This document shows, in pieces, positions 2,701-10,771 of a stretch of 10,771 bases of DNA (the first letter of the stretch is position 1; each line of letters opens with the position of its first letter). The stretch is from NCBI GenBank assembly GCA_048939765.1, contig JBHLPF010000039.1:16033-26803 (forward strand), read 5' to 3'. A program made the translations under genes and the position numbers. The notes under the pieces were generated by a model. That model saw only the letters and a list, made by a program, of their open reading frames with translations, had not been told where the DNA came from and did no database searches. The stretch comes from Promethearchaeota archaeon (GTDB lineage: Archaea; Asgardarchaeota; Thorarchaeia; Thorarchaeales; Thorarchaeaceae).

Positions 2701-2996
2701 CCACGGTTCTTCAGTTCTCTCTCAACCTTGAGTAGATGGACCATTGAAACACTTATTGCATTCTTCAAGGAAACACGCATCAACTTGAGGTCACTATCGG
2801 TATGGTCGGATAGTTTCCTAGGAAGAATTACGTTGAATGCATGTGTCCGCCACATTGACATGTCATTTGCCCATTCAGATTGTTTACGTACCGAATGTAT
2901 ACTGTTGTCATGAATAACTGACTGGTTCAGTGAATTGTCAACCTTGTCCATTCCATCACTAATGGATAGTACATCTCTGTCATTACTTGACGCCAA
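2676..2996 (-). CDS. Hypothetical protein, probably co-transcribed with the ferredoxin-domain gene
   Basis: 106-aa ORF with TTG start that overlaps the downstream gene start. A minus-strand AAAAGTTATAAA TATA/BRE-like element lies about 30-40 nt upstream. Confidence 0.55.
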   Translation of the reverse strand: MASSNDRDVLSISDGMDKVDNSLNQSVIHDNSIHSVRKQSEWANDMSMWRTHAFNVILPRKLSDHTDSDLKLMRVSLKNAISVSMVHLLKVERELKNRGCNPRILV

Positions 2997-2999
2997 TCA

Positions 3000-3240
3000 C
3001 ATCACCAATTCCAATATGGCAACATAGATTTATAACTTTTTGCTATTTGAACACAAAAAATATGCCACGAAATTACATATTAAAAAGTTTCACTTTCGAA
3101 ATTAAAATGTGCAATTCATGTTACAACTAATAAACGCAAATGCTAGTTGCAGTCGTTATCGATTAAAAAAGGTGTCAAAAATGAGGGCTATCAGGAAAGT
3201 TTATGACAGTCTTCGACAAGATTTCAGTGAAGAGGGATAT
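3000..3240. promoter_or_regulatory. AT-rich divergent promoter region
   Basis: AT-rich intergenic stretch between divergent genes, with TATA-like elements at about 3029-3035 (minus) and 3199-3204 (plus, AAAGTTTATG). Confidence 0.55.
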
Positions 3241-3242
3241 TC

Positions 3243-4259
3243 TTGGTTCAGATACTAGATGATTCACTCAATATCAAGCTGCTACAACTGATATGCTCAG
3301 GCACCGGAGTGGATATCAACATCAGCGAACTCTCTGAGAAACTGAAAAAACACAGGAACACAGTGGCTACAAGAGTGGAGAATCTGTTCTCCAATAGAAT
3401 CATCGATAACCCCTTTCATCCATTCCTAAGAGTCTTTTCAGAATACCCTCTCCTTGTTCTTGAAAAAGCAAATCTGCCTCGCAACCAACAAACAAACACA
3501 TGGATTGAGAAGAATCCGCATATCTGGGCTGCATTTTTTGTAAAAGATGAGGATTACAATACCCTGCTAATAGAACTCCATGAGGATCTTCATGCGTATC
3601 AAGTGTGGAGGGATTCCATCCTTCAGGGGGAGTATGTTTCTTCTGAAGCCATCTATCTCAGTACCAAAGCAATAATCAAGAATGACCTTGCCGCCTCGGT
3701 TGAACTCCTGAAATCTGATTTTCATAAATCCCCGCAAATTAAGATGAACGGTCTTACAATAGATCAAACATATCTGGATTTAATTGAAGCACTCATGCTG
3801 GGCAAAGGTGTCTGGACAAATCCAAACTCATTAGCGCGGGAACTTAACGTTCACCGCATGACTGTTCAACGAAGGCTTGAACTTCTTCTTCAAGAGAAGA
3901 TAATCTCAAAGCCTGTGTCCCGTTTTCCACGAATGTGGGCTCCACCTGGATACTTCATTGTTCTCTCACTGATTGAGCTGAAGAAGCAAAAGGATCGCAT
4001 ATCAAAAATCCTCACAGAAGACCCCCACACATCTCTTATAGTAAAAGCTGGCGCAGGAAAGTACAATCTAGTAGCTATAAGCTGCTTTTCAAGGCTCAGA
4101 GATCATCTCACTTGGGAAGAAGAATACGACCAAAGATTCTCAGGATCCATTGGAGCAGTCAAGAATCTGTATCTCTCTCCTTCAATGACCTTCTCGATAC
4201 ATCAGCAGTACGTGCCACTCGAATTTCTAAAAAAGCAGCTGAAGAATATTCATGCGTAG
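3243..4259 (+). CDS. Lrp/AsnC-like transcriptional regulator with two tandem wHTH + ligand-binding modules
   Basis: Two HTH motifs (NISELSEKLKKHRNTVATRVENL and NPNSLARELNVHRMTVQRRLELL), each followed by a RAM-like alpha/beta segment (..EDYNTLL.., ..GKYNLVA..). Confidence 0.8.
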   Translation: MVQILDDSLNIKLLQLICSGTGVDINISELSEKLKKHRNTVATRVENLFSNRIIDNPFHPFLRVFSEYPLLVLEKANLPRNQQTNTWIEKNPHIWAAFFVKDEDYNTLLIELHEDLHAYQVWRDSILQGEYVSSEAIYLSTKAIIKNDLAASVELLKSDFHKSPQIKMNGLTIDQTYLDLIEALMLGKGVWTNPNSLARELNVHRMTVQRRLELLLQEKIISKPVSRFPRMWAPPGYFIVLSLIELKKQKDRISKILTEDPHTSLIVKAGAGKYNLVAISCFSRLRDHLTWEEEYDQRFSGSIGAVKNLYLSPSMTFSIHQQYVPLEFLKKQLKNIHA

Positions 4260-4356
4260 AATCTGATTAAAAACCTACAATCTTGGATAGAAGTGGCTCT
4301 ACGGAAAGGCATGCCTGGAATAGACCATGTGAAATGTGACGCCTTTCACAGTTAGT

Positions 4357-6348
4357 TTATGACTCTCCTCTTCGACTGTATATGGCCATAACAAGTATTA
4401 TTGCTGCAAGCGCAACAACTACGCCAATGACTATTGCAGCAAAGTCCCCCCCAACTTCCTGGATGTTTCTGGTCGAAAGGTAATGAATGTCCTGTTCCGA
4501 CAGTTCGACAAGAATGTAGTCGTCATAGAGCAATCTCACCTCATCAGGTTCTCCCGTCACTTCAAGAGTCAGAGTAGTCGTGCCATTTATCCACACGACT
4601 TCATCGCTCAGAACTTCATGCGTAGTATCAAGGACCCTGATAGGCACCTGTTGTGAGTAGGAATATGGATTATACGCCTCATTCTCATCCTCAATAGTCA
4701 CCATCAGTGTGTCCTCTGTTTCATTATAGATCACATTAGTGAATGAATAGTCTGGTAAGCGGGGGTTGTCAAACCATGGTAGAAAGAACCAATCTAGAGA
4801 CCTCCCACATACCACTTCCAGAGCAGTCTGTAGCCCTGCCAATGTGCCAACTCTGAAGTAATTCTGCTTCAAGAAGAGCGAGAGGCCCTCGATAAACTTC
4901 TCGTGACCTATCTCGACACGCAGCTTCTCAAGCACGAGTGGGGTCTTTACATATTCAATGTATGTCACCAGCTCAGACATATCGTAGTTTGACTGGTTTA
5001 TTGCAGTGTCTATCCCATTTTCCACATAGAAGGTCCTCACGTTGTCTAGATATCGATCATATTGGAAATACTCCCAGCTTACATGATAGCACTCACCAAA
5101 GTAGTTGTGAGACCAGCAGGTCATTCCCTCGTCAAGGAATCCCCAGTCGATACTGTCCACTCCGACAAGCTGAGACCACCATTGATGAACCACCTCGTGA
5201 ACGACCACCAATTCAAGATAATTGGGCGGCCGCTCCCCTGCCCTCACGAGCTGAAGTATGCCATTTGTCATGTACACTTGGCAAGGATACTCCATGCCAC
5301 CATAGAATGCGAACTGCTCCACAACATTGAGAGTTGAATAGGGATAGATGCCATAGGTCGTGTTGAAAAGCAATAGGGTCTCACTTGCCCAGTTCAGGAC
5401 ATCATCTTCCCACTCTGCCTGAGAGTCTGGGATGTAAAAGCTTGATACATTGACAGACCCTACCATCAATGACTCCACAACATAGTATCGAGAGGCTGAG
5501 AATGTGGCCTCGCGTACCGGCAGGCTGGGACTGAAATGGTAGGTGGTATTGCTTCCACCGCTATAGCTATCAATCAATTGACCCGTTGCTGCTACCACCA
5601 TGTCACTAGGGACTTCGACCAAGAAGTCATAGAATGCCATGTCAAGGTAGAAGGGGTCTCCGAAATCGACATACCCATCTGTGTTCCAGCCATCATACTC
5701 ATCGTAGACGCACGGCATGGGATAGCAGCTGGCAAATGTGAATATTCTCGATTCGTTAGTGTCACTGCCCTGCGAGTTGGCTCTGTCTAGACCATCAGGC
5801 AGAGTGGTTTCGAATGAGATTTGAAACGAAGTAGTGCCACCTGCTTCAACAGGCGCTAGAAGATTGACCCACATTATCTCGTCTTCCGACACGACATCGT
5901 AAGACAAAGGAACCTTGATGGTATCGATCGTGGTCACATTGAATATCTCAAGAGTCCCTTGTCTACTAGTGTAATTCATGCCGGAAGGATAGAGATGGAA
6001 CGGAATACTTGAGAATGCAATTGGCTCGTCATTGTGATACTCAATGGACAGATTGCCAGTGACAGTTGACCGAGTATCATCCAGCGTGACAGACAGATTG
6101 ACATGAGAGAAACTAGTCCCTGTGAAATTCCCCCTTGAGAACTGGTTGTAGTCATTGAGGTCAGCTTGGCTCAGCAATGCCTGAGTGTCTGTTCCCAGAT
6201 CTCTCCGAAGGCTTGGTAGTGTCGAACTTGGAAGCGCGATAGAAAAACCAGTGGACACAATCATGAGAGCTACCGAGAAGATAAGGAGTCTCTTCAAATT
6301 ACACCAACCACCTATCACTATATCCTGAGTAATCAGCCCAAAACGCAT
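4357..6348 (-). CDS. Membrane-anchored M1 family (gluzincin) metallo-aminopeptidase; the true start may be TTG at about 6297
   Basis: GGMEY exopeptidase motif and HEVVH-x18-E (FLDEG) zinc site. N-terminal signal peptide (KRLLIFSVALMIV...) and C-terminal TM helix with basic tail. GGTGG RBS-like sequence precedes the TTG. Confidence 0.92.
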   Translation of the reverse strand: MRFGLITQDIVIGGWCNLKRLLIFSVALMIVSTGFSIALPSSTLPSLRRDLGTDTQALLSQADLNDYNQFSRGNFTGTSFSHVNLSVTLDDTRSTVTGNLSIEYHNDEPIAFSSIPFHLYPSGMNYTSRQGTLEIFNVTTIDTIKVPLSYDVVSEDEIMWVNLLAPVEAGGTTSFQISFETTLPDGLDRANSQGSDTNESRIFTFASCYPMPCVYDEYDGWNTDGYVDFGDPFYLDMAFYDFLVEVPSDMVVAATGQLIDSYSGGSNTTYHFSPSLPVREATFSASRYYVVESLMVGSVNVSSFYIPDSQAEWEDDVLNWASETLLLFNTTYGIYPYSTLNVVEQFAFYGGMEYPCQVYMTNGILQLVRAGERPPNYLELVVVHEVVHQWWSQLVGVDSIDWGFLDEGMTCWSHNYFGECYHVSWEYFQYDRYLDNVRTFYVENGIDTAINQSNYDMSELVTYIEYVKTPLVLEKLRVEIGHEKFIEGLSLFLKQNYFRVGTLAGLQTALEVVCGRSLDWFFLPWFDNPRLPDYSFTNVIYNETEDTLMVTIEDENEAYNPYSYSQQVPIRVLDTTHEVLSDEVVWINGTTTLTLEVTGEPDEVRLLYDDYILVELSEQDIHYLSTRNIQEVGGDFAAIVIGVVVALAAIILVMAIYSRRGES

Positions 6349-6442
6349 TAAAACTACCGTCTTGAGCAGTCAATTGGCAAATGTGAGAATATCGCCTGTA
6401 TCTGTTTATGCCGTTCTCCCTTTGGCTATAATTGACAGCCAG

Positions 6443-6463
6443 GAAGAAGTGGCGCCGCCGGGA
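6443..6463. repeat. Copy of tRNA-Asn 3' end (att-like), repeat R4
   Basis: GAAGAAGTGGCGCCGCCGG (6443-6461) is a 19-nt exact match to 10232-10250, covering tRNA positions 65-76 plus the 3' trailer. Confidence 0.92.
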
Positions 6464-6471
6464 TTATCATT

Positions 6472-7905
6472 CTAGCCGAAACCTAGGCTTGCCACCAAAT
6501 CATCAATGATATGTTTGATTGGATCTGCAAAATACATCAAAAGGAAGATGATAATGAAGATGGATATCATAATCACCCATCTCATATAGTATTCCCTGCG
6601 TAAATCTGAGAAGTTGCGTGCCAGCTCTGCAAGGTCCCTTGCCCGTGTCCGATAGTACCATGCAATGCCTCGATTGGTGATAGAATAGGACCCCTCTCGC
6701 TCGGTGATGAGCCCGCTCCTCTCGGCTTGTCTTATATTCTTCATAATGCCCCTCTGTTTTATGTTGTGGAACCCTATCACGGCTTGAACATCGTAGTACC
6801 GGTGACCGACGCTCACTCCTCTTAGAAAATCCTGTTCAATGGCATCTGCTCGCTTGGGGCCAGTTGCGAGTCTTCCAAGAACCCAATACGTCATGAGGTC
6901 CTCATACACCTCGTTTGCGCCAAGACGAATTGTGTCTACATCAATCTCGTCACCTGCAGCTCTCAGTTCCTTGAAGGTAGAGAAACCCTCCCAGAGTATT
7001 ATCGCGGATATTGCGAACGCTACCAGCTTATCTACAAAGTAATATCCGAAAATTGAGAAGGTGAGGCCGATTATAACCCCGAAGGCAACCTTGATGTGCG
7101 AGGTGTCTTCTTTGGCATCTCCAATTAGAGCCAGATTCCCTGAACTTCGCCCCACCATCACCTTCAACCAGATGAGGCCCTTGTTGATCACGATGGACAA
7201 GAACTCCACATAATATGCTTGAACCGACCATTGCACCGGCTCATTCGAAAGCAAACCAGCAATTGAACCCACTGCGAGTAGTGCCCCAGCGATCATCATA
7301 GTCATTATGATCGCTAGAGTGCCAAGCCTGTCTCGATTGTACTTGATGCTGAATGCAATTATGCCTACGACTAGAAGATCGGTCAGATTCTCAACGCCTT
7401 CGTTCAATATAGCGTCACTTCGAATTGACAGGCCAATCCAAATCTTCACAGAAGCCAGAAGAAGCAGAGCAAATGTAGAGATAATAAGTACAGTGCGTTC
7501 CGTAAGGAAACGCCTCATCCAGTACCCCTCATGGACTATCTCGAGCCTGCCGTATCGAATCGTTTCACGTCCACGATGACTGAGGCTGTATAGACCCTCA
7601 GATTCCTGGATTAGGTCGTCATTCAAACCATGCTGGATGGCCTCATCTATGTCAATGGACGTCATAGTGGGTCGACGAAGCCTGAACGCAAATATGCCAT
7701 CTAGATGGTCATAGAGGCCCTCTCGTGTGTTGAATCCTTCGTGAATCGCACATAGTATTGCATAGAGAAGTGAAACAGCTGGCTCACTCCGTAGAATGCT
7801 TTTAACTGGGTAACTGTGTCGTGCCTGCCTAATCTCTTGATGGCTGAAACTCCAGAGCTCCCTAAATGGGTCAGTGGAATCTTCAATCACTGGCGGATTA
7901 GCCAC
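6472..7905 (-). CDS. Cation diffusion facilitator (CDF)-like transporter domain flanked by wHTH-like domains
   Basis: CDF-type TM pattern (LLLASVKIWIGLSIRSDAILNEGVENLTDLL; GRSSGNLALIGDAKEDTSH; FVDKLVAFAISAIILWEG). Two wHTH wing-like segments (LIQESEGLYSLSHRG and GLITEREGSYSITNRG). Confidence 0.8.
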   Translation of the reverse strand: MANPPVIEDSTDPFRELWSFSHQEIRQARHSYPVKSILRSEPAVSLLYAILCAIHEGFNTREGLYDHLDGIFAFRLRRPTMTSIDIDEAIQHGLNDDLIQESEGLYSLSHRGRETIRYGRLEIVHEGYWMRRFLTERTVLIISTFALLLLASVKIWIGLSIRSDAILNEGVENLTDLLVVGIIAFSIKYNRDRLGTLAIIMTMMIAGALLAVGSIAGLLSNEPVQWSVQAYYVEFLSIVINKGLIWLKVMVGRSSGNLALIGDAKEDTSHIKVAFGVIIGLTFSIFGYYFVDKLVAFAISAIILWEGFSTFKELRAAGDEIDVDTIRLGANEVYEDLMTYWVLGRLATGPKRADAIEQDFLRGVSVGHRYYDVQAVIGFHNIKQRGIMKNIRQAERSGLITEREGSYSITNRGIAWYYRTRARDLAELARNFSDLRREYYMRWVIMISIFIIIFLLMYFADPIKHIIDDLVASLGFG

Positions 7906-7969
7906 TTTAAGGCCTCCATTCCAAGCGAATTGATGAATGATGCATAGATGCTTTGCTAAGTATCTTATG

Positions 7970-7992
7970 CACAGTTACAATGCGTAACTGTG
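7970..7992. promoter_or_regulatory. Perfect 9-bp inverted repeat CACAGTTAC-N5-GTAACTGTG, candidate operator upstream of the CDF-like gene
   Basis: Read directly from the sequence; about 65-87 nt upstream of the 7905 start. Confidence 0.5.
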
Positions 7993-8015
7993 AACTTTCA
8001 TTATGCATGAACGTC

Positions 8016-8040
8016 AGAATTAGATGGGGCCGTCGGGAGT
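8016..8040. repeat. Degenerate copy of tRNA-Asn 3' end, repeat R3
   Basis: AGAATTAGATGGGGCCGTCGGGAGT. Its core TGGGGCCGTCGGGA matches the consensus at 12/14 positions, and it is very similar to R1 at 9485-9509 (22/25). Confidence 0.75.
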
Positions 8041-8060
8041 TACAGAACTAGCAATGTCAG

Positions 8061-8711
8061 CTAATCATCTTGCTCAAGAGAAGATCGATTTTGCTCATCA
8101 GTCAATTCTCTTAACCTACGAATATACTCCATTGGGTTGTTTCGTTTCAAATCATCAAGCTCTTTCAGTCGTTCAAAGGGAATGCTGCCTGCTCTGCCCA
8201 TGTACGATTCTCTTATATTTCTCTCAAAGGTGACTCTAGGTTCATTTCTAGGTGAAGATCTTCGAGAAAGCACTAGAATCACTATGTAGAACAGATACAC
8301 CATGGATATACCCACGATTGCAGGAAGCGTCTGATTCACTGGTAATGACATGAGATACACAGCTACAGGTATCAGTATGACAAAGGGAATCAAACTAACA
8401 AGAATGCCTGCGACTTTGAGCGTACGAGGGCTAAATCTCAGAAAAAATCCAAATCTCCGTACACTATCAAGTACAGATTGCAGCGTATCAGTTGAAATCA
8501 ATAAGTCAATCTCTGACTCAGAGAAAGATATGACGGGCTTCCCTCTCTCATTTTGAATCTCGAATGAGTCCTCATAGTCTGATAGTCCCCCAACGGACTG
8601 AAACCGCATGACTCTCCACTCAACGTATCTGGGGCTCTCTCTGATCACACTCTCTATTGTTTCACATTTGCTGTCTCGATAGTATTGCTCTGGAATTGTC
8701 TTTCTCTCCAC
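8061..8711 (-). CDS. Hypothetical membrane protein (2 TM helices)
   Basis: 216-aa ORF with GTG start and two hydrophobic stretches. A minus-strand TTTATC lies about 32 nt upstream. Confidence 0.72.
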   Translation of the reverse strand: MERKTIPEQYYRDSKCETIESVIRESPRYVEWRVMRFQSVGGLSDYEDSFEIQNERGKPVISFSESEIDLLISTDTLQSVLDSVRRFGFFLRFSPRTLKVAGILVSLIPFVILIPVAVYLMSLPVNQTLPAIVGISMVYLFYIVILVLSRRSSPRNEPRVTFERNIRESYMGRAGSIPFERLKELDDLKRNNPMEYIRRLRELTDEQNRSSLEQDD

Positions 8712-8791
8712 CCTATCTACTTATGATTACCCTCAGAAAGAGATAAACTTCCGCATTTTGGAATCTTGGAGAAGCATGTCATTGGATGCAA

Positions 8792-8812
8792 AAGGAGTGG
8801 CGCCGCCGGGAG
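8792..8812. repeat. Copy of tRNA-Asn 3' end, repeat R2
   Basis: AAGGAGTGGCGCCGCCGGGAG. AGTGGCGCCGCCGG is identical to the tRNA end, and AGTGGCGCCGCCGGGA is identical to R4. Confidence 0.9.
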
Positions 8813-8887
8813 CTAACTGCTTTTCAAAGAGTTTATCCTCTTTTGCACTAAAGAACTATCGAATCGGCTTTAGGAGGGCCATAAAGA

Positions 8888-9439
8888 ATGCTGACTTTTA
8901 CTGAGCAAGGAGTTGATGCCGACAGCATAAGACGCCACCATGCGTTGTTTCCTGATGTTTGGAAGAAGACGAAATCCTGGTGGCATGGCTCCCCGAGAAA
9001 CATTCTTGCGAAGACATGGAATTGCGGTCAGCAGATTATTGCGGTTAGTTCGTGGGTGATAGGCAGGATTTCGGTGTCCTGTGCAATCGAGTATAATACA
9101 GAGAACAAATCGTGCAAGGCAACAGTCAGCATGGATTATCTTGGCTTTCCGAATATTGAAGGCAAATTCGCCCAAGCTCTGCGTATTGTTTTGACATCGT
9201 CGAATCAATTGGGCGAATCGCTGCTAGCACCTGACGACGAAATCCACACAATCAAGGAGAGGAGAACGAGTCGGCTAGTCTTGGGTATGATTTTCTTAAT
9301 CATAGGATTCATCCTCACAGCTATCCCATTAGCTGCTATCCTCTCTTACCCGGTAACACCTGCCGCATATCAGACTCTCGCTCTTGGCATCACCCTAGAT
9401 GTGGTGGGACTGGGCCTTTTAGCAACTTCAAAACGATGA
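8888..9439 (+). CDS. Hypothetical membrane protein (2 C-terminal TM helices)
   Basis: 183-aa ORF with AGGAGG upstream (about 8872) and two hydrophobic segments at the C-terminus. Confidence 0.7.
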   Translation: MLTFTEQGVDADSIRRHHALFPDVWKKTKSWWHGSPRNILAKTWNCGQQIIAVSSWVIGRISVSCAIEYNTENKSCKATVSMDYLGFPNIEGKFAQALRIVLTSSNQLGESLLAPDDEIHTIKERRTSRLVLGMIFLIIGFILTAIPLAAILSYPVTPAAYQTLALGITLDVVGLGLLATSKR

Positions 9440-9484
9440 CAAATGAAATGGGCTCTGTAGATAGAGGTGAGTCTGGCGAAGAAT

Positions 9485-9509
9485 AGAAGTAGATGGCGCC
9501 GTCCGGAGT
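9485..9509. repeat. Degenerate copy of tRNA-Asn 3' end, repeat R1
   Basis: AGAAGTAGATGGCGCCGTCCGGAGT. Its core TGGCGCCGTCCGGA matches the consensus at 12/14 positions. Confidence 0.8.
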
Positions 9510-9513
9510 AGAT

Positions 9514-10182
9514 TCAGAGATGTTTGCAAATATAGACTTGAGAATCATCATCAACTACAAATTCACCTTTTCTTTGGAAGAATCCCATTAACACCTCTTC
9601 ATGATGTTTATTCATATCTGTCGCATACTCTTCCTTCAATTCTCTTTGGAAACAACGCAAAATCTCTTCAAAATCAGCAAAATTGAGTTGTCCTTTGATT
9701 TGTTTCTTACTAAAAGAAAAATGGTTTGAAAGGATCTTCTCGAATTTGTTGTAAAAGGAAACTGATCTGACATTTTCCTCAACTAACAAATCAACTATTC
9801 TTTGATACTCACTAGTGGGAGAACTACAAATTAGAAGAGCTGTTCCATCATCTTCTAGATGTTTGGATATATTCTTGACTGCATTGGGTAGATTTCCTAG
9901 ATACATATAACCCACTCCAATTGTAAGAATCAGATCATACTTCCTTCCCAAATCAAAGTCTTCCATATCTTCAACAAGAAAGGTAACATTCCCATGCACA
10001 TTTCTTTGTTGGGCATCTCGAATCGTTTTCGCATCAATATCTATTGCAGTCAATTCCCGTACTCTATCTGCAAGAGCAAACGTTATTCTTCCTGTTCCGC
10101 ATCCTAATTCTAGAATGGATTTGTCTTTGATATCAACCAACTCAGTAATGTCCCTAATGCCCTTCTCAGTTTGTGAATTCAT
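9514..10182 (-). CDS. Class I SAM-dependent methyltransferase
   Basis: Motif I ILELGCGTGR, motif II TAIDID, and DMEDFDLGRKYDLI. Visibly more AT-rich than its neighbours. Confidence 0.92.
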   Translation of the reverse strand: MNSQTEKGIRDITELVDIKDKSILELGCGTGRITFALADRVRELTAIDIDAKTIRDAQQRNVHGNVTFLVEDMEDFDLGRKYDLILTIGVGYMYLGNLPNAVKNISKHLEDDGTALLICSSPTSEYQRIVDLLVEENVRSVSFYNKFEKILSNHFSFSKKQIKGQLNFADFEEILRCFQRELKEEYATDMNKHHEEVLMGFFQRKGEFVVDDDSQVYICKHL

Positions 10183-10196
10183 CTCTAATGGCGATT

Positions 10197-10215
10197 ATGG
10201 ACTAGTCCATTATAA
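10197..10215 (-). promoter_or_regulatory. TATA-like TTATAA next to a perfect 14-bp palindrome ATGGACTAGTCCAT, upstream of the methyltransferase
   Basis: Palindrome at 10197-10210; TTATAA at 10210-10215, about 30 nt upstream of the ATG at 10182. Confidence 0.55.
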
Positions 10216-10255
10216 CTAATATGAAATTACAGAAGAAGTGGCGCCGCCGGCAGGG

Positions 10256-10285
10256 GCTTCGATTGACCTCGTACATAGGACAACC
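10256..10285 (-). other. tRNA intron 4 (30 nt, T-loop position 59/60)
   Basis: Perfect central helix TTCG/CGAA with bulges AG^G and GC^C; inner helix GTTG/CAAT. Confidence 0.88.
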
Positions 10286-10307
10286 CTCGAACCTGCGACC
10301 AACAACT

Positions 10308-10336
10308 GTCTGGCTCTCGATCACCTGACCGAAAGG
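10308..10336 (-). other. tRNA intron 3 (29 nt, canonical position 37/38)
   Basis: Central helix CTGT/CCAG (3 of 4 pairs) with bulges TA^C and AC^A; hairpin CTTTCGGTC/GATCGAGAG. Confidence 0.85.
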
Positions 10337-10345
10337 TAACAGGCT

Positions 10346-10376
10346 TTAGCGGCATGACGCAGTAGCGTACATTGCT
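10346..10376 (-). other. tRNA intron 2 (31 nt, position 28/29)
   Basis: Perfect central helix AGCG/CGCT with bulges AC^A and AA^A; internal hairpin ACGC/GCGT. Confidence 0.85.
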
Positions 10377-10382
10377 GTCGCT

Positions 10383-10413
10383 TTCGGTATACTGTTCCCG
10401 AGGAAACAGGATT
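10383..10413 (-). other. tRNA intron 1 (31 nt, position about 22/23)
   Basis: Internal hairpin CTGTTTC/GGAACAG; relaxed BHB with central helix AGGT/ACCG. An alternative register GGTA/TACC exists, so the exact junction is less certain. Confidence 0.75.
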
Positions 10414-10460
10414 CTACCTACTGAGCCACGGCGGCTGTTCGGCTTGGGTCGCGGGTTTCA

Positions 10461-10468: not shown

Positions 10469-10551
10469 ATTGCTGTTTGGGGTCACTGAAACATGGCTCA
10501 ATTGAAAACACTGAAATCACTCGAGCACACATTTCTTGATTGGAGATCTGG

Positions 10552-10771
10552 TTGAGCGGCCGGAGAAGAAATCCCGTCTTTGGAGCAGCGATTGTTGGTC
10601 TTCTTATCTTGACTACGGGAATTACCCTCTACTACTTCTTACTCCCAGGTATGCCTGCATTGGAACCAATACCCGCCGTGCCAGCAAGTGAAACTCCCCC
10701 GGATGACTATGTATCAGTTGAAACCATCAACGCTGGAAATCTTGTACTGAATGCCACCGCCAATGCCACAG
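10552..10771 (+). CDS. 3'-partial secreted or membrane-anchored protein (not in the ORF track)
   Basis: The frame is open from TTG at 10552 to the window end: MSGRRRNPVFGAAIVGLLILTTGITLYYFLLPGMPALEP... It has a basic N-terminus followed by a hydrophobic helix, and GGAGA upstream. Confidence 0.7.
   Translation, partial: MSGRRRNPVFGAAIVGLLILTTGITLYYFLLPGMPALEPIPAVPASETPPDDYVSVETINAGNLVLNATANAT

Follow-up and report, generated by a model that had tools for sequence, protein, structure and literature searches.

Single-gene units bounded by copies of a tRNA-Asn 3' end form an exchangeable array in Thorarchaeota

We analysed a stretch of 10,771 nucleotides (the window) that makes up the terminal 10.8 kb of contig C68 in G000, the metagenome-assembled genome of a Thorarchaeota (Asgard) archaeon, which comprises 3.37 Mb in 108 contigs and is 88.5% complete. 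The window contains a tRNA-Asn(GTT) gene with four introns on the minus strand (10239..10435) and, beyond its 3' end, an array of single-gene units parted by short copies of that 3' end. ARAGORN and Rfam miss the tRNA when run on the unspliced window. When introns of 31, 31, 29 and 30 nt are taken out of 10435-10239, the exons (10435-10413, 10381-10374, 10342-10337, 10307-10286 and 10255-10239) give 76 nt, which ARAGORN calls as tRNA-Asn(GTT) with a full cloverleaf. On the minus strand the gene starts with GCCGCCGTGGCTCAG and ends with CCGGCGGCGCCA, and its last exon, which is 17 nt long, contains the whole 15-nt tRNA part of the repeat. An intron-less tRNA-Asn homologue with the same mature sequence type is found in the related genome G082.

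The repeat is a 23-bp block that consists of tRNA positions 62-76 (15 nt) and 8 nt of the trailer. Allowing up to two mismatches, its 12-nt core TGGCGCCGCCGG has five matches in the window, all on the plus strand, at 6450, 8025, 8798, 9494 and 10239, compared to a chance expectation of 0.16, and none of 200 shuffled sequences attains five. The last match belongs to the tRNA; the other four are the copies in the same orientation that a preliminary description of this DNA had reported. The tRNA's own 3' end with its trailer (10231..10253) reads AGAAGAAG-TGGCGCCGCCGG-CAG. Going outward from the tRNA, the second copy (9486..9508) has the core TGGCGCCGTCCG with two mismatches, the third (8790..8812) has the exact core and the trailer variant AAAGGAG, the fourth (8017..8039) has the core TGGGGCCGTCGG, again with two mismatches, and the fifth (6442..6464) has the exact core and the exact 7-nt trailer, being identical to the tRNA copy in 19 of 19 nt (6443-6461 compared to 10232-10250). 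The array had been thought to end at 6443. It extends further: at about 4285-4304 a decayed copy delimits one more unit, the fifth, which holds an M1-family peptidase. This sixth copy, GGATAGAAG-TGGCTCTACGG-AAAG (about 4285..4308, plus strand), is located in the gap between a helix-turn-helix (HTH) gene and the M1-peptidase gene, aligns with the intact copies that bound the M1-peptidase unit in the relatives G089 and G071, and is where the array ends distally. Across the entire 3.37-Mb assembly there are three occurrences of the exact 12-mer, every one inside the window, and none of its reversed control; the motif is therefore confined to this locus and not scattered over the genome.

A sequence logo of 61 non-tRNA copies from 20 genomes confines the information to positions -8 to +15 around the core. 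It is high in the 12-nt core, moderate in eight purines on one side (aAgAAGAAG) and in KAG on the other, and nil beyond. This 23-bp block is the sole conserved cis element of the array. Its copies do not form hairpins: in 75-nt windows around 74 copies, analysed on both strands, the mean z score relative to shuffled sequences is +0.18, and 4.7% of the values lie below -2. Dyad symmetry was not found at the site either. Moreover, the units lack terminal inverted repeats, the longest inverted match between their ends averaging 5.1 nt compared to 4.8 nt in shuffled sequences. This feature, together with the absence of a Y1 transposase from G000, sets them apart from insertion sequences and miniature inverted-repeat transposable elements. 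We infer that each copy was once a tRNA 3' end.

From the tRNA outward, the five units of the window carry a methyltransferase, a 183-aa membrane protein on the opposite strand, a 216-aa membrane protein, a cation-diffusion-facilitator (CDF) transporter and an M1 peptidase. The first gene (9514..10182, minus strand) encodes a 222-aa class I S-adenosylmethionine (SAM)-dependent methyltransferase (Pfam Methyltransf_25/31). It is followed by the gene of the 183-aa predicted membrane protein, which belongs to no family (8888..9439, plus strand, opposite to the tRNA), and by that of the 216-aa two-helix membrane protein (8061..8711, minus strand). The fourth cargo is the 477-aa CDF transporter (6472..7905, minus strand, Pfam Cation_efflux), which has a C-terminal winged-helix segment, and the fifth is the 663-aa M1-family peptidase (4357..6348, minus strand, Pfam Peptidase_M1), which is also found as a repeat-bounded 2.17-kb unit in G089 and G071. 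Each interval holds one open reading frame (ORF), and Pfam and ORF analyses agree with the earlier observation of one gene per interval with no integrase encoded. The ORF is preceded by its own upstream region of about 55-140 nt and followed by 2-30 nt, ending a few nucleotides from the repeat. Minus-strand stops do lie close to the next core as described before, but at distances of 8, 24 and 10 nt rather than 6, 22 and 8 nt.

The same organization is seen in an array set of 20 related genomes and metagenome contigs. A single ORF is present in 44 of 53 repeat-bounded intervals, whose median size is 936 bp, and the units have the same orientation as the tRNA in 28 cases and the opposite one in 16. 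Profile scans of about 65 individual array ORFs identified enzymes, transporters and proteins of no assigned function, but not a single recombinase. The two most frequent cargos are the family of the 216-aa membrane protein, which is the most common one at the locus in relatives (17 loci) and single-copy in G000, and a 65-97-aa zinc-ribbon protein (DUF6487-like). Both were considered as the engine of the array and rejected, the former as a very diverged, single-copy, two-helix membrane protein and the latter for being too small. In three loci a gene for a protein that combines a zinc ribbon with a phospholipase D (PLD)-like part of the single-HKD, Nuc type ends 3-36 nt from the tRNA-proximal repeat (L026 12792-13778, L254 654-1640, L264 8286-9263). 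Finally, G084 (C139:2321-2967, locus L238) has a pseudogenised methyltransferase unit that is interrupted by four in-frame TGA codons and lies beside a decayed repeat, which indicates that units decay in place.

The locus was compared within a family set of 86 genomes (85 relatives and G000), and a DNA search that covered 40 of the relatives returned the units as separate modules. Arrays of two to six repeat copies are present in at least three genera and in estuarine-sediment metagenome contigs, and a scan of the genome collection finds multi-copy loci restricted to Thorarchaeota records. Shared units align from repeat to repeat (e.g., 1-757/757 with 1-756/756), and their flanks diverge at the core, the trailer side and the KAG side each staying with a different neighbouring unit. 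The trailer variant AAAGGAG, for instance, accompanies the 216-aa unit in G015 as well. The methyltransferase unit ranks first in G000 and third in G020, and in G082 it is the fourth or a later one; the order of the CDF and M1-peptidase units in G000 is reversed compared to G089 and G002. In G015 the CDF unit is missing, and the M1-peptidase side is joined to the 216-aa unit via a single repeat, the indel being exact at the repeats. Multi-gene blocks also move jointly, such as OsmC-CDF-radical SAM-M1 peptidase in G002. Thus, synteny at the tRNA-Asn locus is not fixed among relatives and the breakpoints coincide with the repeats, and the shuffled order and the precise absence in G015 support the earlier proposal that the units are independently exchangeable cassettes.

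Levels of identity indicate how the units have travelled. Over its full length between the two repeats, the methyltransferase unit shares 86-87% identity with its counterparts in G020 and G072, which belong to another genus, and the CDF unit is 95% identical in the congener G002 and 86% identical in G089 of the other genus. Methyltransferase, CDF, M1-peptidase and radical-SAM units are all 85-88% identical between two genera. A syntenic 20-kb core segment of G000, in contrast, is 93% identical to G002 and 65-71% identical to the four genomes of g5, the second genus used in the cross-genus comparison. Since the units are so much more similar across genera than the core, they have spread horizontally. 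The tRNA locus itself is 84% identical between G000 and G002, which is below the genome background of 93%. The methyltransferase is found in six of the 86 family genomes and, within its own genus, in G000 only; five of the six copies have a recognisable adjacent repeat and the sixth (G072) lies inside a repeat-bounded unit. The distal CDF unit, in contrast, is common to six congeners. A proximal unit that occurs in G000 only and a distal one that is shared fit accretion next to the tRNA, with the proximal unit being the most recent. We conclude with high confidence that the window covers the part nearest to the tRNA of a variable cassette island in the chromosome, a cassette array whose units are exchanged horizontally.

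The preliminary description had proposed that a recombinase acting in trans moves the units. Profile searches of G000 for the tyrosine recombinase families PF00589 and PF16795 (Phage_integrase, Phage_integr_3), Resolvase, Y1_Tnp and Cas1 recovered none, and its one TnpB is distant, on another contig. Tyrosine recombinases were detected in just 29 of the 86 family genomes and never on an array contig, and four array-rich genomes of 91-93% completeness (G020, G089, G071 and G072) lack them. With a Phage_integrase match in so few genomes, most of the 86 seem to lack a XerA-type chromosome dimer resolvase. Moreover, tblastn searches with 21 Thorarchaeota integrases of 47 array loci (378 kb) and of G000 did not detect an integrase or a remnant of one. 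An IMG/VR search for an attP site with a 15-mer gave 87 matches, each of them single and mostly on GC-rich contigs, and none with a purine run in a Thorarchaeota-like context. These results argue against a trans-acting recombinase, and a protein family of LAGLIDADG fold, described below, points elsewhere.

Integrons comprise the integrase IntI, the platform attI and arrays of attC cassettes, and sedentary chromosomal integrons exist. Archaeal integrons are reportedly known too, from work by Ghaly and colleagues in 2022. The comparison with integrons made earlier holds for the exchangeable single-gene units: in both systems units of about 0.3-2 kb, most of them with a single gene, follow one another and are parted by a short recombination-associated sequence, in both content and order vary between relatives, and in both the cargo consists of accessory enzymes and membrane proteins. 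It fails in other respects. Integrons encode a tyrosine recombinase of the IntI type beside the array, whereas neither IntI nor another tyrosine recombinase was found in G000 or in the 47 array loci. Their spacer is the folded attC hairpin, whereas here it is an unstructured, asymmetric 23-bp copy of a tRNA 3' end. Integron cassettes are promoterless and co-oriented behind the promoter Pc of the attI platform, whereas the platform here is a tRNA gene and the units bring their own upstream regions and lie in either orientation. The site works like an integron made of other parts.

Many relatives have a different arrangement at this locus. In these, the tRNA is reversed relative to the array, and the repeats are inverted and lie upstream of the tRNA promoter. 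We rejected the idea that such arrays arose when the tRNA segment was simply inverted, as the hybrid site that this predicts upstream of the promoter is not present in G000 or G020. The tRNA 3' end in these loci is adjoined by a convergent gene that encodes a protein of 600-930 aa, here termed the giant protein. It is free-standing, has a long acidic N-terminal region and matches neither Pfam nor PDB sequence profiles. Two of its motifs, ..SDCHL and ..LIPEDGxF, suggested LAGLIDADG. An AlphaFold (AF2) model of the C-terminal 343 aa, based on 26 sequences, has a predicted local distance difference test (pLDDT) score of 88.5 and a predicted template modelling (pTM) score of 0.85. Foldseek found 44 matches to this model at E<=0.001, and the matches listed are LAGLIDADG-fold proteins. 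The top ones, with a probability of 1.0, are I-Tsp061I, PI-SceI, PI-PfuI and I-DmoI, and the catalytically inactive WhiA appears as well. Finally, both LAGLIDADG helices retain their closing acidic residue, which is the invariant D76 in one and D171, shared by at least 90% of the members, in the other. Based on the model, we are confident that this domain adopts the fold of LAGLIDADG homing endonucleases, with its two alpha-beta-beta-alpha-beta-beta-alpha halves. The family was recognised only by the fold search, not by Pfam LAGLIDADG_3 or other sequence profiles; family-wide matches to LAGLIDADG_3 are for the most part long frames that resemble inteins, and all of them lie outside the array contigs. 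The giant protein shares with I-DmoI and I-Tsp061I, which are monomeric two-motif archaeal enzymes, the fold and the two helices each closed by an acidic residue. It differs from them in its size, its acidic N-terminus, its lack of a Pfam or PDB sequence match and its setting: its gene lies at the 3' ends of tRNA genes, not inside introns or inteins, and is accompanied by that of a roughly 200-aa partner and, in many cases, by that of a HerA-like ATPase.

The giant family is found in 52 of the 85 relatives, often in multiple copies and as fragments. In at least 11 loci (G003, G013, G089, G080, G085, G022, G024, G052, G100, L292 and L343) the gene is convergent at the tRNA-Asn 3' end, at a distance of 5-100 nt, or of about 600 nt with the partner gene in between. 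It is paired with the gene for the partner, and the HerA-like ATPase gene often lies alongside, preceding it. A readable tRNA 3' end is present in nine of 11 tRNA-Asn alleles linked to the putative nuclease gene, and all nine depart from the 23-bp consensus in the core or in the trailer, having a new trailer, CCGATGG, CCGGTGG or GCTA; in G003 and G100 no recognisable 3' end was found. The TTAACCAT trailer and the CCGATGG core are such nuclease-linked variants. Array-linked tRNA-Asn alleles, in contrast, retain CCA-CTTCTTY. As further observations, the ATPase (about 900 aa, HerA/DUF87-like), the giant protein and the partner make up a conserved three-gene module at tRNA 3' ends in L019 (9936-15298), L026 (14098-18937), L346 and L347; a more distant family member adjoins another multi-intron tRNA; single genomes carry up to ten copies of the giant protein, many interrupted by stop codons; and L343 has the zinc-ribbon and PLD-like gene (2805-3725) some 280 nt upstream of the one for the giant protein, without any array repeat in sight.

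A precedent for a nuclease gene at a host-gene end is provided by the WHO elements at FBA1 of Torulaspora and Lachancea yeasts, in which a conserved host gene is adjoined by a LAGLIDADG-type nuclease gene (Coughlan et al., 2020, PMC7282813). In the model for these elements each event swaps out the host gene's 3' end, and the displaced 3' fragment remains downstream as a recombination site, which builds clusters (PMC7282813). The Thorarchaeota arrays likewise have displaced host-gene 3' fragments downstream of units, and the alleles linked to the putative nuclease differ at the target. A nuclease-fold gene beside the host gene that would be its target is absent from the window and from G000 but present in the at least 11 related loci. 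WHO elements differ in that their units hold nuclease genes or pseudogenes, whereas the array units are nearly all cargo-only, and in that the host gene here is a tRNA gene and the fragment just 23 bp. In the nuclease-linked Thorarchaeota loci, furthermore, the array is on the other side of the tRNA and inverted, and cleavage by the nuclease is putative. Mobile endonuclease ORFs of fungal mitochondria are a further case of this kind.

The static anatomy of the arrays is compatible both with a recombinase crossover inside the 12-nt core and with a scheme like that of the WHO elements. Our analysis leads us to favour, tentatively and at somewhat below even probability, that a LAGLIDADG nuclease specific for the tRNA end, rather than an integrase, drives break-triggered copying between arrays, because no recombinase is detectable and a nuclease family is found at the exact site in relatives. 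The nuclease would cut the tRNA end, and repair of this double-strand break would draw its copy from another array. For this, the displaced tRNA end would serve as downstream homology and the 23-bp copies as landing pads of short homology. Cargo genes would hitchhike on the repair copying, and the nuclease gene would be lost later. New units would enter beside the tRNA, pushing older ones outward, and recombination between copies would remove or swap units. G000 would be a nuclease-free and currently passive carrier.

Several observations weigh against this nuclease mechanism. The giant family is absent from G000 at its 88.5% completeness, and the nuclease gene is in none of the five window units and in almost none elsewhere. 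Consensus repeats persist in arrays of nuclease-bearing genomes (5/21 by the strict count, compared to 8/21 in nuclease-free loci), from which it follows that the enzyme is held in check or that the repeat makes up just a part of the cleavage site. A WHO-like model predicts the array downstream of the nuclease gene, whereas in the nuclease-linked loci it is upstream of the tRNA promoter and inverted. The swapped order of the CDF and M1-peptidase units would require two independent proximal acquisitions. Finally, the LAGLIDADG fold also occurs in non-catalytic proteins such as WhiA, and this, together with the frequent HerA-like ATPase, means that the giant family may belong to another system.

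The main competing explanation, which we consider unlikely, is site-specific recombination of the kind seen in integrons or in cis-mobilizable elements (CIME). A unit would excise as a circle that carries a single 23-bp site and then integrate again, either at the tRNA or at any of the copies, the recombinase being encoded elsewhere, for example on an unbinned virus or plasmid, or belonging to an unrecognised family. This is the simplest account of the swapped unit order and of the single-unit indel, and the uniformity and sharp edges of the 23-bp block in 61 copies, as well as the parting of the trailer and KAG sides with different units, are as expected for a crossover inside the core. Metagenome-assembled genomes, moreover, often lack mobile elements. 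The searches, however, argue against it: PF00589, PF16795, Resolvase, Y1_Tnp and Cas1 are missing from G000, tyrosine recombinases from array-rich genomes of 91-93% completeness, and those encoded in 29/86 genomes stay away from array contigs. The tblastn searches with 21 integrases were blank, none of the 87 IMG/VR matches is a plausible attP, and the site has neither dyad symmetry nor a hairpin. Slightly less probable again is that no dedicated enzyme is involved and that, after DNA uptake or cell-cell exchange, RadA-based homologous recombination of the host uses the tRNA, shared units and the 23-bp copies, with recombination between copies causing deletions. That a mobility enzyme was not found in most array-bearing genomes agrees with this idea, as do the several multi-gene blocks that move jointly, such as the one in G002, and the lower identity of the tRNA locus between G000 and G002 (84% compared to the 93% background), which is expected for allelic replacement. 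The idea leaves unexplained, however, where the 23-bp copy flanking each new gene comes from and why homology regularly ends at copies rather than at random points, and 23 bp is short for efficient unassisted recombination.

The units might also be fossils, that is, ordinary integrase-bearing elements that integrated serially at the tRNA, decayed to single genes and are immobile now. Decayed repeats at 8025, 9494 and about 4294 and the pseudogenised methyltransferase unit of one relative would agree with such a history, and so would the tycheposon islands of Prochlorococcus, which show tandem accretion, partial-tRNA repeats and degenerate remnants (bioRxiv 10.1101/2020.12.28.424599). In tycheposons, as in the arrays, direct repeats from the tRNA 3' part flank each insertion and part successive ones at the tRNA (positions 62-76 plus trailer in the array repeat), newcomers displace (in the arrays, probably) older insertions outward, and the cargo is adaptive. 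Tycheposons, however, carry integrases and replication genes, have sites of about 40 nt and number one or two per genome (bioRxiv 10.1101/2020.12.28.424599), whereas the array units are single cargo genes with a 23-bp site and without an integrase or remnant in 47 loci. Other tRNA-anchored accretion is known from additive flexible genomic islands and from CIME and integrative and conjugative elements (ICE). The fossil explanation is very improbable and largely refuted, since the units are intact and tightly trimmed with identical boundaries across genera, their order varies among genomes, integrase fragments number zero in 47 loci, and unit identities of 86-88% compared to a background of 65-71% indicate recent transfer as units.

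In a literature search no account of these archaeal arrays came up; the nearest described systems are tycheposons, integrons and WHO elements. Asgard archaea have large, transfer-rich genomes, and the locus represents a concrete and recurrent route of gene uptake: units of one gene each pass between genera and are stacked at a tRNA gene with base-pair precision, without the recombinases that define integrons or integrative elements. If the proposed nuclease-plus-repair mechanism were true, a way of capturing genes whose descriptions have until now been limited to selfish elements at a single yeast gene would here carry cargo, and tRNA-gene introns would be linked to the defence of the tRNA gene. 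A broader and rather doubtful extension is that Thorarchaeota build much of their accessory genome by integrase-free capture. Nucleases would target the 3' ends of tRNA and other conserved genes, breaks would be healed from the arrays of other cells with the 23-bp ends as universal landing pads, and the variable and unusually numerous tRNA introns (0-4 in tRNA-Asn across the family) would be immunity scars. If they were such scars, this would be direct evidence for the old idea that introns shield tRNA genes from invaders.

The number of tRNA-Asn introns within the family, as compared between the window and relatives such as L035, L020, L017 and L018, ranges from zero (G082, a 76-nt gene) to four (G000, 197 nt). 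A T-loop intron of about 30 nt at 59/60 is present in 13 of 27 distinct tRNA-Asn alleles. It sits 2 nt from the repeat boundary and is enriched among alleles with a disrupted trailer (7/13 compared to 1/14), counts that are not independent as the alleles are kin. In L035 (G082, about 3880-3960) and L353 (G052, about 2398) an extra tRNA-Asn promoter and 5' exon with an intron-like continuation lie upstream of a radical-SAM gene, just before the intact tRNA, which shows that replacement or duplication of the tRNA gene has happened from its 5' side too.

The trailer is more widespread than the repeat. At least eight further tRNA genes in G000 encode CCA followed by CTTCTTC or TTTCTTC (e.g., C37:117610, C37:122916, C64:38807, C64:54595). 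Because CCA-CTTCTTC is the trailer of at least eight other tRNA genes, this part of the repeat looks like a generic tRNA 3' flank, and the pyrimidine-rich trailer they have in common may be a termination or processing signal.

To the left of the distal repeat, HTH, ferredoxin and GNAT genes form a flank common to the congeners G002 and G004; the latter, a single-contig genome, keeps this flank, yet has no tRNA-Asn or repeat within 14 kb. On the promoter side the contig ends about 335 nt upstream of the tRNA, where relatives carry a ZIP transporter or a second array, and an ORF (10540-10771, plus strand) that starts 100 nt past the tRNA promoter runs off the contig end. G000 has further repeats of this kind elsewhere. 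In an array on contig C36 (121-12430, locus L047), AATCCCGGCGAGCGCACCA with a CTTCTTCTTCA-type trailer occurs at 146, 1681 and 5451, with a partial copy near 12410, and one copy has a trailer beginning with TTTCTTC. Copies of ..GGCGGGGGCGCCA are located at contig ends (C12:3, C12:1407, C34:12). Finally, a repeat of about 30-45 nt (..GGGCATTTCCCCAATACTCTATCTCACCGCC..) occurs five times at a spacing of about 1.5 kb in C94:59478-64235, and this series may be another gene-end array.

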